A stretch of DNA of 64,000 bases from Dictyostelium discoideum (taxonomy: Eukaryota), in contig CM000150.2 in assembly GCA_000004695.1 (NCBI GenBank), positions 672,001 to 736,000 on the forward strand. The letters are read 5' to 3'. Position 1 is the first letter of the stretch, and the number at the start of each line of letters is the position of its first letter. Both the position numbers and the translations under genes were made by a program. This document shows positions 35,598-40,745 of the stretch, piece by piece. Below the pieces are notes generated by a model, which did not search any database, was not told where the DNA came from, and saw nothing but the letters and a program-made list of their open reading frames with translations.

Positions 35598-35700
35598 TTT
35601 GAAATGATCTTCTTATCACAGTAAGACTTTCTTATAAATTTTTTTTTTAATAATAAACCCATTTATCAAATCATCCAATGATTATTTTTTAAAAGGTTTG
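35598..35700 (+). repeat. Conserved ~115-bp upstream element, copy 1 (diverged); it sits ~350 bp upstream of each family gene
   Basis: tttgaaatgatcttcttatcacagtaagactttctt...(T-run)...catttatcaaatcatccaatgattattttttaaaaggtttg aligns to the other copies. Confidence 0.6.
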
Positions 35701-35740
35701 TTTAATATCAATAAAAAATTATTATTATTATTATTATTAT

Positions 35741-35777
<37 letters not shown>

Positions 35778-36044
35778 CAAATAATTTTTCATTTACTCTT
35801 AGTTTATTAAAATAATCTTTAATTTTGTATTAATAGTTAAGGCCAGGGGAAATCTAGATTAAAAAAACATTATCTTGTAAATTTTAATATCTTATTTATT
35901 TTTTTTATTTTTATTTTAATTTTTTTTTTTATTTTAATTTTTTTCTTTTTTTTTTTTATTAATATAAATACCTTTTTTTTTTTTTCTTTTTGTCATTATA
36001 AAATTATTAAAATATTTAAAAATAATTAAAATAAAAAAAGAAAA

Positions 36045-36883
36045 ATGAGTGGTGTTGTTGTAACTTTAATTGAAAACGGTCCAGCTATTTTAGGTGCTCT
36101 TAAAACTGGTGCTGGTCTTATCCGTAGCTTTTTCCCAGACAAAACTAAAGATCTTCAAGTAAATATTCACCAATTATTCATATTATTTATAACTAAAATA
36201 AAAAAATAATAAAAAAAATTCTAATTTAAAATAATAATTTTTTTTTTTTTTTTTTTTTTAATAAATAGGATGTTACCTATCGTGTTTATGAAGATGAACA
36301 ACCAAAAGGAAAAGTTAGAGTTATCCTTGTAAACGAATCTAATGGATGGAACAAAGCTAGTAAGTTTATTTATAAATTTTTTTTTTTTTTTTATTTTTAT
36401 TTTTAATCACATAAATTATTAATTAATTAACTTTATCAATTCAAATTATTTAGTTAGACTCTATCATGGTGGTAGTGGATATTCTGAATGTAAAGCAGGT
36501 GATAGCACTGGTACTGTTGCCAAAGGTGATCCACATTTGAAATATTCAATTCAAACAATTGATTTCCCATGGAAATCAGGTGGTCAACAATACATTGCCT
36601 TACAATTATGGAAACCAAAAGCATTAGGTATTTGGTACGATCTTGAAGAAATTAGAATCACTCCAAGTAACCAATCTGATTATGATGGTATGTATTTTTA
36701 AACAAACTATTTATATAAATCTCTTTTATTTTTATTTTTTTTTTTTTCAAAATTCAAATTATCTAACAATAAAAAATTAAAAAATTAAAATCAACAGGTA
36801 AAACATTAGTCTTTTACTGGGGTACTGATGGTTCACCTTATTTCCATAACCCAAATCATTTAATTAAACCATATGAACTTTAA
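36045..36883 (+). CDS. Actinoporin-like(?) small Trp-rich protein, tandem family copy 1; exons 36045..36158, 36269..36359, 36454..36687, 36798..36883 (~175 aa)
   Basis: Encodes MSGVVVTLIENGPAILGALKTGAGLIRSFFPDKTKDLQ | DVTYRVYEDEQPKGKVRVILVNESNGWNKA | IRLYHGGSGYSECKAGDSTGTVAKGDPHLKYSIQTIDFPWKSGGQQYIALQLWKPKALGIWYDLEEIRITPSNQSDYD | GKTLVFYWGTDGSPYFHNPNHLIKPYEL*. Donors are GTAAAT, GTAAGT and GTATGT and the acceptors are ...TAG/...CAG. Splice phases were verified by hand. Confidence 0.8.
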
Positions 36884-37102
36884 AAATTCTTAAAACTCAT
36901 TTCAAATTTATTATAAATAAATGAAACATATTTTAGTTTTAAATATTATTTTTTAATTGTTTGAGAGTATAGGTTTATTTCATGAATTTATTAATTTGGT
37001 TATAATCATATTTATATTTTATTTTTCCAAACCATTACAAAAAATCTGGAAAAATTTGTTTTACCAAAATCTTTAAAAATCATAAAAAAACATTTCCTAT
37101 TG

Positions 37103-37138
<36 letters not shown>

Positions 37139-37399
37139 AAATTAAGAAAATCTTTTTGATAAAATGCTTTTTAAAAAAATAAAAAAAAAGAATTTTTTAT
37201 TGGTAAATAAAAGCAAAAAAAAAAAAAAAAAAATAAAAAAAATAAAAAAAAAGAAATGCAAATGATCAGAAATTGAAGAAAAATTTTTCGAAAAAAGAAT
37301 AGCGAGATTTTGCCTTTTAATTAATAAAAGAGTTTGGGGAAAAAAAAAAAAAAATCTAAGTTTAGGAAAATAACCAATGAAATTTTTTTTTACAAAACA

Positions 37400-37520
37400 G
37401 ATATTATTTTTTATTTTGCAATGATCCCTTCACACACTAAGACATTTTTTTTTTAAAATTTTTTTTTTTTCAAAAATCTCATTTATCCAATCACCGAGAT
37501 GTAATTTTTTAAAAGGTTTT
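37400..37520 (+). repeat. Conserved upstream element, copy 2
   Basis: acagatattattttttattttgcaatgatcccttcacacactaagacatttttt...caaaaatctcatttatccaatcaccgagatgtaattttttaaaaggtttt. Confidence 0.7.
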
Positions 37521-37660
37521 TTATAATATATTTATTTTAATCTTATTATTATTTTTTATTTATTTATTTATTTATTTTTTAAAATTTTCTATCATTTTCT
37601 CTTAGTTTATTAAAATATTTTATCAATTATTAATTATCTATATCAATTCAAATTATTTAG

Positions 37661-37923
37661 TTAGAATCTATCATGGTGGTAGTAATTATGACGAATGTAA
37701 AGCAGGTGATAGCATTAGTACTGTTTCAAAAGGTGATCCACATTTGAAATATTCAATTCAAACAATTGATTTCCCATGGAAATCAGGTGGTCAACAATAC
37801 ATTGCTTTACAATTATGGAAACCAAAAGCATTAGGTATTTGGTACGATCTTGAAGAAATTAGAATCACTCCAAGTAACCAATCTGATTATGATGGTATGT
37901 ATTTTTGAAACAAATTATTTATA

Positions 37924-37976
<53 letters not shown>

Positions 37977-38133
37977 CAAAATTCAAATTATCAAACAATA
38001 TAAATTTTCATTTTAAAATTTAAAATCAACAGGTAAAACATTAGTCTTTTACTGGGGTACTGATAGTTCAACTTATTTCCATGACCCAAATCATTTAATT
38101 AAACCATATGAACTTTTTAAAATTCCAATTTAA
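37661..38133 (+). pseudogene. 5'-deleted paralog (only the exon-3 and exon-4 equivalents; 37661..37894 and 38033..38133) of the actinoporin-like family
   Basis: Exon-3-like sequence (IYHGGSNYDECKAGDSISTVSKGDPHLKYSIQTIDFPWKSGGQQYIALQLW...) follows the intron-2 acceptor directly, but the upstream element is fused straight to the intron tail. Exons 1-2 and the promoter-proximal region are absent between 36890 and 37660. The C-terminus has diverged (..FHDPNHLIKPYELFKIPI*). Confidence 0.7.
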
Positions 38134-38599: not shown

Positions 38600-38728
38600 A
38601 AAACAGATATTTTTTTTTTTTATTTTGCAATGATCCACTTACCACACTAGGACATTCTTTTAAAAAATTTTTTTTTTGAAAAATCGCATTTAACCAATCA
38701 CCGAGGTATTGTTTTTTAAAAGGTTTTT
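38600..38728 (+). repeat. Conserved upstream element, copy 3
   Basis: acagatatttttttttttattttgcaatgatccacttaccacactaggacattcttttaaaaaa...gaaaaatcgcatttaaccaatcaccgaggtattgttttttaaaaggtttt. Confidence 0.7.
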
Positions 38729-38753
38729 TATAATATTAAAAATAAATTATTTT

Positions 38754-38793
<40 letters not shown>

Positions 38794-38914
38794 ATCTTTC
38801 ATTTTCTCTTTGTTTATTAAATTATTCTTACTTATTATAATAATTAAGAAAGCCAGGGGAAAAATCTCGATAAGAAAATTATTTTCTAATAAATTTAATA
38901 TCTGATTGTTTTTT

Positions 38915-38985
<71 letters not shown>

Positions 38986-39087
38986 AGGCCTTTAAAAAGT
39001 ATAAAAAAATTTTTTTTTTTTTTTTTTTTCATTATAAAATTTTAAATATATTCAAATATTTAAAGATAATTTAAATAAAAAAAGAAA

Positions 39088-39394
39088 ATGAGTGGTGTTG
39101 TTGTAACTTTAATTGAAAACGGTCCAGCTATTTTAGGTGCTCTTAAAACTGGTGCTGGTCTTATCCGTAGCTTTTTCCCAGACAAAACTAAAGATCTCCA
39201 AGTAAATATTCATTAATTACTTATTCATAATATAATAATAAAAAATTAAAACTAAAAAAATTTTTTTTTTTTTTTTTAATAAATAGGATGTTACCTATCG
39301 TGTTTATGAAGATGAACAACCAAAAGGAAAAGTTAGAGTTATCCTTGTAAATGAATCTAATGGATGGAATAAAGCTAGTAAGTTTTATTTATAA

Positions 39395-39489
<95 letters not shown>

Positions 39490-39951
39490 AAACTTAATTA
39501 TTAATTTATAATCAATATCAATTCAAATTATTTAGTTAGACTCTATCATGGTGGTAGTGGATATTCTGAATGTAAAGCAGGTGATAGCACTGGTACTGTT
39601 GCCAAAGGTGATCCACATTTGAAATATTCAATTCAAACAATTGATTTCCCATGGAAATCAGGTGGTCAACAATACATTGCCTTACAATTATGGAAACCAA
39701 AAGCATTAGGTATTTGGTACGATCTTGAAGAAATTAGAATCACTCCAAGTAACCAATCTGATTATGATGGTATGTATATTTAAACAAACTCTTTAAATAT
39801 ATCTCATTTTTAATTTTTTTTTCCAAAATTCATATATCTAACAATGTAAAATTTAAAATCTACAGGTAAAACATTAGTCTTTTACTGGGGTACTGATGGT
39901 TCACCTTATTTCCATAACCCAAATCATTTAATTAAACCATATGAACTTTAA
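39088..39951 (+). CDS. Actinoporin-like(?) family copy 3; exons 39088..39201, 39287..39377, 39536..39769, 39866..39951; coding sequence identical to copy 1
   Basis: Exon sequences are identical to copy 1, including the flanking intron ends. Intron 2 carries an ~85-nt poly(T) at 39400-39485. Confidence 0.8.
39400..39485. repeat. ~85-nt poly(T) homopolymer inside intron 2 of family copy 3; also poly(T) ~65 nt at 38920..38985
   Basis: Uninterrupted t-run. The equivalent intron in copy 1 has only ~20 T. Confidence 0.9.
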
Positions 39952-40462
39952 AATTCAAATTTTAAAATTTTAAAAAATTATCTTTAAATTATTATAAATA
40001 AAAGAAACATGCTTTAGTTTTATCTTTATTACTCTTTATTTCTCTTTATTTATAATTTTTTTTTATTGTTTGAGCTTTGGTAAATTATTTCATTAATTTT
40101 TTTTTTTTTTTCGGACGAAAAAATAAATTCCAGGAAAAAAATTTAATTCCTAATTTTTTTAAAAAATCTATGAAATTCAATAAAAAAAAAACATTTCCAA
40201 ATAAGTATTAAAAAAAAAAAAAAAAAAAAAAACCTAAATCAAATTAAAAATGTTATAAAAAAAAAAAAATTTTATTTTATTTTATTTTTTTTTTACACAA
40301 AAAAAAAAAAAAAATGCAAATGACCAGAAAGTTAAGAAAAATTTTTCGAAAAAAAAAAAGTGAGATTTTGCCCTTTAGATTAAAAAAGATTTTGGGGAAT
40401 AACAAAAAATCTAAATTCAGCAAAAATAACCAATTGCTTGACCAATAAATTTTTATTATATA

Positions 40463-40598
40463 AAACAGATATTATTTTTTATTTTGCAATGATCCACTTA
40501 CCACACAAGGACACTCTTTTTAAAAAATTTTTTTTTTTTTTTTTTCAAAAAAATCTCATTTAACCAATCATCGAGGTATTATTTTTTAAAAGGTTTGT
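40463..40598 (+). repeat. Conserved upstream element, copy 4a (first of a tandem pair)
   Basis: acagatattattttttattttgcaatgatccacttaccacacaaggacactctttttaaaaaa...caaaaaaatctcatttaaccaatcatcgaggtattattttttaaaaggtttg. Confidence 0.7.
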
Positions 40599-40611
40599 TA
40601 TTTATTATTTT

Positions 40612-40745
40612 TTATTTTTTTATTTTGAAATGATCCACTTACCACACTAAGACATTCTTTTTAAAAATTTTTTTTTTTTTTTTAAATTTTATAAAAATCT
40701 CATTCATCTAATCATCGAGTTATAATTTTTTAAAAAGGCGATCCT
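40612..40745 (+). repeat. Conserved upstream element, copy 4b (second of the tandem pair)
   Basis: ttttgaaatgatccacttaccacactaagacattctttttaaaaa...ataaaaatctcattcatctaatcatcgagttataattttttaaaaaggcgatcc. Confidence 0.7.

Follow-up and report, generated by a model that had tools for sequence, protein, structure and literature searches.

The 64,000-nt window analyzed here, chr1:672001-736000 of Dictyostelium discoideum AX4 (positions without the prefix chr1 are counted from the first letter of the window), has a composition of about 20% G+C with long runs of A and T and carries a tandem array of a repeated gene with 4 exons, whose product of 173–174 residues is without a Pfam domain. Exact protein look-up assigns the intact copies to DDB_G0268332 and DDB_G0267726, whose sequences are identical, and to DDB_G0267728, all of D. 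discoideum AX4. The names uduA1, uduA2, and uduA3 are given to these genes in supplementary tables (PMC6198379; PMC5295588), where they are placed at chr1:708045-708883, 711088-711951, and 713027-713821, respectively. In the window uduA1 (DDB_G0268332; 4 exons, 173 amino acids) thus lies at 36045..36883, uduA2 (DDB_G0267726; protein identical to UduA1) at 39088..39951, and uduA3 (DDB_G0267728; 174 amino acids) at 41027..41821, while a 5'-truncated uduA pseudogene at 37661..38133 (copy 2) consists of exons 3-4 only and has lost the normal stop codon; all four are on the plus strand. Our subject is a bipartite element of roughly 115 bp that recurs upstream of each of these copies, and which the initial annotation had taken for a possible cis-regulatory module, a small non-coding RNA (ncRNA) gene transcribed by RNA polymerase III (Pol III), or a miniature non-autonomous element.

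The five copies of the element reported in that annotation are borne out by the direct-repeat families D17 and D18 and by pattern searches, in which the patterns for both halves of the element gave 0 matches in 100 shuffles, and a profile made from the five copies (nhmmer) scores them at E = 2e-22 to 9e-32. All five are on the plus strand. The diverged copy E1 (35598..35700) lies 345–447 bp before the ATG of uduA1 and ends 141 bp before the 5' end of the published uduA1 transcript model. E2 (37413..37520) precedes the pseudogene, so that a copy is indeed present upstream of the 5'-deleted gene as had been described, and E3 (38622..38727) precedes uduA2, both copies being recovered by direct repeats as well as by the pattern and profile searches. 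E4a (40482..40598) and E4b (40623..40745), found by pattern search and Tandem Repeats Finder, are the first and second members of a tandem pair before uduA3, the second being contiguous with the uduA3 promoter. The upstream position of the copies is as first described, with distances of 282–545 bp from the ATGs. Beyond these five, the sole significant profile match in the 64-kb window is a partial sixth copy on the plus strand, comprising half A only (35141..35187, nhmmer E = 0.0013). It adjoins a T-run and a degenerate block 3 (~35207-35245; block 3 is described below) and represents the remains of a promoter that is not followed by a gene.

It is clear that the element is richer in G+C (20–27% overall, 37–39% in its cores) than the intergenic background outside the islands (~11%), but it is not uniquely complex or conserved, as had also been supposed. 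The intergenic alignment contains further conserved islands, namely the 3' untranslated region (3'UTR), block 2, the 'CATTTTCTCTTAGTTTATTAAAAT' block, the 'CCAGGGGAAAATCTCGATAAG' block, the TATA region, and the 5'UTR. Block 2 (GCAAATGATCAGAAA...GAGATTTTGCC...TTTGGGG), which had been noted as a second block further upstream, is confirmed by reading the sequence at 37259..37350 (plus strand), at 40316-40400, and in part at 38560-38600, and an additional diverged copy lies at ~35442-35515. Block 3 (CATTTTCTCTTAGTTTATTAAAATATTCTTA), preceded by a T-run, is located on the plus strand at 38800..38831 and also at 35790-35822, 37593-37622, and 40794-40826, and the 'CCAGGGG' block at 35841..35876 (plus strand) has paralogous blocks at 38853-38888 and 40849-40880. 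The repeat unit measures ~1.65–1.95 kb, and the 2.9-kb unit of the initial annotation could not be sustained; the spacing of copy 1 and copy 3 is 3043 bp because one full unit and the 5'-truncated copy 2 lie within it. In the pseudogene the promoter (E2 and block 3) is fused straight onto the end of intron 2, and at the stop GAACTTTTTAAAA replaces GAACTTTAAAA, the frame continuing to a later TAA.

We compared this arrangement with the uduA loci of seven other assemblies (L001–L007, of which L004–L007 are D. discoideum or D. cf. discoideum). The intergenic region is alignable end to end, from 3'UTR to ATG, across 20 units as a chain of islands in the order 3'UTR, block 2, element, block 3, CCAGGG block, AATATCTGATTG motif, TATA region, and 5'UTR. 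Sixteen further copies of the element are found in L004–L007, one per array intergenic region, and the orientation is that of the gene for all five window copies and for 15 of these 16. The single reversed copy, in L007, sits within an inverted segment of ~450 bp that includes block 2, the element, block 3, and the CCAGGG block. Whereas E1 is 74–78% identical to the other AX4 copies, its identity to the E1-type copies is 96% (L007) and 91% (L005), and when the first unit is compared between AX4 and cf. discoideum the homology sets in at the left edge of the element and extends as far as the stop codon. No copy outside the uduA arrays was found in the search space formed by the 64-kb window and 134 kb of related loci (~200 kb in all). 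The element therefore belongs to the 5'-flanking promoter region of the uduA unit, of which it forms the upstream part and with which it is copied, deleted, inverted, and recombined, and within these ~200 kb it has no existence of its own outside a tandem array specific to the D. discoideum clade. This is essentially what the initial annotation had named as speaking against its own proposals, that is, a passenger of the duplicated unit whose divergence is like that of its flanks.

The same behavior is seen in the tandem doubling before uduA3, which Tandem Repeats Finder reports at 40475-40735 with a period of 141, 1.8 copies, and 87% matches, and in which E4a and E4b are 85% identical. The two copies had been thought to have diverged independently in place, an idea that must be given up, as E4a and E4b are each closer to another strain than to each other. 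Block 2 together with E4a is nearest to the last intergenic region of L007 (93% and 91%) and to that of L006 (91%), while E4b together with 276 bp downstream is nearest to the last intergenic region of L005 (86% and 84%). The type of E4a is thus that of the last unit in strains L006 and L007, E4b is the resident copy, and the other strains have a single copy of the element at the position of the AX4 doubling. The simplest reading of these relationships is that the doubling represents the joint of an unequal recombination between two diverged unit types, which would have occurred just after the element.

To describe the divergence of the element relative to the rest of the unit, we realigned each region pairwise for 136 unit pairs under one scoring scheme, because multiple alignment of A/T-rich DNA is unreliable. 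The mismatch fraction is 0.136 for the element, compared with 0.117 for the introns, 0.107 for the rest of the promoter, 0.160 for the 3' flank, and 0.061 for the exons. The element has diverged less than the introns in 56 of the 136 pairs and less than the rest of the promoter in only 28, and its divergence tracks that of the rest of the promoter (r = 0.61) and not that of the exons (r = 0.00). Gap-permissive alignment flatters low-complexity DNA, and therefore the element is perhaps about equal to the introns in these comparisons and not worse. The per-column diversity of 18 whole units is in line with this, with values of 0.18–0.22 for the element, 0.17–0.20 for introns, and 0.19–0.21 for the other promoter islands (0.106 for third codon positions and 0.094 for the 5'UTR). 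Splitting the columns into G/C and A/T gives the same pattern, the variation of G/C columns being 0.31 in the element vs. 0.37 in the other promoter islands. Only in the first-unit comparison across strains is the element kept somewhat better than the introns (91% vs. 85% for L005, 97% vs. 90% for L007), with this mild excess equally present in the adjacent spacer.

Outside D. discoideum and cf. discoideum, the profile search gave no match to the element in D. citrinum, D. firmibasis, or D. dimigraforme. The intergenic regions of D. citrinum are still alignable, and of the element only CAATGAT and a few neighboring bases line up; one can still recognize block 2 and the CCAGGG block, both better retained than the element, along with the TATA region and the 5'UTR. 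What is observed upstream of the orthologous genes in these related species is accordingly rapid loss and not retention.

The position of the element with respect to the transcript is given by the published uduA1 model CUFF_84_1 (a Cufflinks model), whose first exon at chr1:707841-707876 coincides with window 35841-35876, the CCAGGGG block (PMC5295588, supplementary file 11). This leader exon is non-coding, and its GT at 35877 is spliced to the AG at 36039-36040, so that the transcript resumes at 36041, 4 nt before the ATG. A CCAGGGG box with a GTAAAT donor is found in 12 of 21 intergenic regions, D. citrinum included, whereas uduA2 has ATAAAT where the GTAAAT donor stands elsewhere. The 164-nt 5'UTR intron of uduA1 contains the proximal TATA box, and therefore two alternative promoters per unit are implied. 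A putative splice donor in half B of the element itself (GAG|GTATT) occurs in only some copies and was rejected as a conserved feature. With regard to expression, uduA1-3 share a time course, being high at the onset of starvation and off within a few time points, and they differ in the fruiting body, where uduA1 reaches 31–38 transcripts per million (TPM) in cup cells; the values of uduA2 and uduA3 in these cells are close to zero, and the two are seen in vegetative cells only. The uduA genes have also been described as jointly down-regulated on infection with Mycobacterium marinum and as linked to DupA (bioRxiv 10.64898/2026.09.10.750649). Among the proposals of the initial annotation, that of a cis-regulatory module is hence plausible but unproven, with promoter position and shared expression in its favor and, on the other side, conservation that does not exceed the level of introns and the remaining promoter, along with fast decay between species.

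These observations suggest a model in which each unit would carry two core promoters, both with the layout usual in Dictyostelium of an A/T-rich TATA-like stretch and oligo-T before the start. The distal start would lie just after the T-run downstream of the element, and the distal transcript would begin with a short non-coding leader, composed of block 3 and the CCAGGGG block, which splicing would join to a point 4 nt ahead of the ATG. This would place the element ~85–190 bp upstream of the distal start, as an upstream promoter region, and its cores AATGATCCACTTACCACAC and CATTTAACCAATCA, the latter with a CCAAT box, may bind factors that set the shared growth-phase expression. We infer from this layout that the element is the upstream region of the distal uduA promoter and that its G/C cores are candidate factor sites. 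Dictyostelia possess the NF-Y subunits (PMC6873476), and we considered an enrichment of CCAAT (11 sites in 3.75 kb vs. 3.2 in shuffles); as the units derive from one another by copying, this excess is overstated, and we do not count it as evidence. One of the two closest parallels is offered by co-regulated gene families of Dictyostelium such as those of discoidin I and actin, in which paralogues share short G/C-containing blocks in very A/T-rich 5' flanks at similar distances from the gene, and the start is likewise preceded by a TATA-like stretch and oligo-T. The uduA blocks differ from these in being conserved no better than introns and in being largely clade-specific. Our literature search found no paper naming the uduA promoters and no promoter dissection.

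It is also important to consider what else a short, recurring sequence of this kind could be. A small ncRNA gene, either transcribed by Pol III or dependent on the Dictyostelium upstream sequence element (DUSE) like the Class I RNAs and amplified together with the unit, is suggested at first sight by the discreteness of this ~100-nt stretch, its G/C enrichment, and the T-runs that follow it, and the likeness to Class I RNA genes extends to their being small, multicopy, G/C-richer islands in A/T-rich intergenic DNA (PMC7919456, which also describes the features of the DUSE and its role for Dictyostelium ncRNA genes). Against this, Rfam 15 gives no match in 34800-41100 at gathering thresholds nor at E ≤ 5 (the sole Rfam match in the window is the tRNA-Thr at 63884), the fold energies of four copies on both strands are within the shuffle range (z from −0.99 to +0.66), and RNAalifold finds 0 consensus base pairs among 20 copies on either strand. 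The DUSE-type motif WCCCAYAA, which would be expected ~60 nt upstream of the start, has no match in 14121-58852 and hence none in 35000-41100. Furthermore, a run of 10–20 T divides the element in the middle, and a T-run of this kind would terminate Pol III, here after ~40 nt. Among the merged models listed in PMC5295588, none derived from poly(A)+ RNA covers E2, E3, or E4a/b on the plus strand, and the part of the listing that was covered, from which the minus strand is possibly missing, has no exon end in the kilobase ranges of E1-E3. Lacking a DUSE, a terminal stem, a covariance-model match, and a consensus structure, the element shows none of the testable features of a Class I-like RNA gene, and the Pol III or ncRNA proposal, unsupported by the Rfam, fold-energy, consensus-structure, DUSE, and poly(A)+ model comparisons, appears to us very improbable. 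Much the same can be said of a miniature non-autonomous transposable element that inserted upstream of the ancestral uduA gene, or did so repeatedly. Its resemblance to miniature inverted-repeat transposable elements is superficial, coming from a comparable length of ~115 bp and the presence of several tandem and partial copies. Inverted repeats in and near the copies amount to nothing more than A/T-run pairs and the self-complementary TTTTTAAAAA, target-site duplications are absent, and the flanks of all copies are homologous to one another. The place of the element in the unit is fixed, the one copy that departs from gene orientation does so as part of an inverted promoter segment, and dispersal beyond the arrays is not seen in the ~200 kb searched. 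A metagenome scan with a 19-mer of the core returned three marine contigs only; their flanks are unrelated, and the matches are due to chance. By inverted repeats, flanks, orientation, and dispersal alike, the element thus has none of the testable properties of a miniature transposable element, and we attach next to no credence to this explanation.

A neutral passenger is harder to set aside. Here the element would be a less degenerate remainder of ancestral intergenic DNA, recently copied and without function, and conspicuous only as a G/C-containing sequence is easier to spot than A/T runs. Divergence equal to or slightly above that of introns and the rest of the promoter, G/C columns that vary comparably to those of the other promoter islands, the rapid loss between species, and the rearranged units of other strains, one without the start of half A and one with its promoter inverted, are all what such a passenger would exhibit. 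On the other hand, the element of the first unit is kept somewhat better than the introns (as is its spacer), the homology between AX4 and cf. discoideum begins exactly at the element, it lies where an upstream promoter region would be expected with respect to the transcript 5' end, and regulatory sites in Dictyostelium are typically G/C-containing islands in A/T-rich promoters. We therefore regard a functionless passenger as rather unlikely, though well worth keeping in view. A decayed exon fragment was also tried, as TGATCCAC and TAACCAATC are common to the element and exon 3, and was rejected because, in local alignments of each half with the gene, 183–443 of 500 shuffles scored as well. 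Weighing these together, we favor the joint reading in which the element is a co-duplicated upstream segment and serves, as we infer, as the upstream region of the distal uduA promoter, to which we assign a probability of roughly 0.65.

Several observations weigh against this promoter reading. Outside the first-unit comparison, conservation does not exceed that of the introns, nor does the element as a whole show signs of purifying selection. In D. citrinum the G/C cores of the element are not kept, and inspection of the D. firmibasis and D. dimigraforme loci, each with a single copy of the gene, revealed no recognizable element. The 5' end of CUFF_84_1 is an assembly end and not a mapped start site, and the density of CCAAT here (2.9 per kb) is below the window average (3.8 per kb). 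E1 is only 74–78% identical to the other copies, yet the early time course of uduA1 is similar; taken with the cup-cell expression of uduA1 alone, this means that sequence by itself ties the element to no expression pattern. A more specific version of the promoter reading can be put forward only tentatively, as a possibility that is more doubtful than not: the element may be a young, D. discoideum-specific upstream activator for growth-phase expression of uduA that responds to infection and to DupA and mitogen-activated protein (MAP) kinase signaling, and the differences among its copies (E1 vs. E3/E4 type, single vs. doubled) might underlie the patterns of the paralogues, such as the cup-cell expression of uduA1, which encodes the same protein as uduA2.

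As a repeated sequence of ~115 bp, the element is an ordinary finding with little significance beyond the uduA locus. In scans of very A/T-rich genomes, recurring G/C islands in tandem arrays are expected from duplication of the whole unit, and a comparison with introns and flanks should come before such islands are given the name of elements. Should the promoter reading prove correct, however, the uduA array would provide a compact set of natural variants, with identical proteins behind diverged, doubled, truncated, or inverted promoter copies, in which a Dictyostelium promoter responsive to growth state and intracellular pathogens could be dissected.

The other close parallel is with tandem arrays subject to unequal crossing-over and gene conversion, which the uduA array resembles in a copy number that ranges from 1 to at least 7 among strains and species. 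The number of uduA genes is 3 plus 1 truncated in AX4, at least 7 in L007, 5 in L006, 5 in L004, and 3 in L005, and it is 3 in D. citrinum and 1 each in D. firmibasis and D. dimigraforme; the orientation of uduA relative to its neighbors in D. firmibasis differs from that in the others. Mosaic units, a truncated copy, an inverted promoter, and the joint at the doubled element are likewise familiar from arrays undergoing concerted evolution. The uduA array departs from these in that homogenization is strong in exons and weak in introns and the promoter. Between uduA1 and uduA2, the exons match at 522 of 525 nt, with exons 3 and 4 (320 nt) identical. Over ~100 nt of the intron between exons 3 and 4, by contrast, 10 mismatches and 14 gap columns are counted, and the identity of the promoters is no more than 76–79%. 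Homogenization of this pair thus seems to be confined to exons, whereas the divergence between uduA2 and uduA3 is similar in exons and introns. With exons strongly and introns and promoter weakly homogenized, the promoter copies, the element included, are therefore drifting apart.

Two rearrangements in the other strains may be noted in this context. In L007 the whole promoter segment before the last uduA gene is inverted (~9470-9920), with an extra direct CCAGGG-like block beside it at ~9403, and either a genuine inversion or a misassembly may account for this. In L006 the last intergenic region (6150-6639) is only 490 bp long, and a deletion fuses the 3'UTR of the preceding gene to the middle of half A.

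The product of the array is likewise restricted in its distribution. Homologues of uduA are confined to D. discoideum, D. cf. discoideum, D. citrinum, D. dimigraforme, and D. firmibasis, even by profile search, which makes UduA an orphan restricted to the D. discoideum clade. Distant UduA paralogues were sought for promoter comparison, and the profile search gave the same eight clusters only. The predicted fold is a beta-sandwich with a moderate predicted local distance difference test (pLDDT) score of 63, in which the N-terminal 37 residues preceding the sandwich are unmodelled; comparison of this model with the PDB gave no match at E ≤ 0.001, and the fold does not clarify the function. In our literature search the three uduA gene identifiers appeared in no paper's main text, and the udu name appeared in one infection preprint. 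Elsewhere in the window, a tRNA-Thr(AGU) gene lies at 63884-63955, and an open reading frame 2 (ORF2) fragment of TRE5-B is tabulated at chr1:734616-735299 (window ~62616-63299; PMC6198379). The TRE5-B fragment is thus located ~600 bp upstream of the tRNA-Thr(AGU) gene, in the usual association of TRE5 retrotransposons with tRNA genes.

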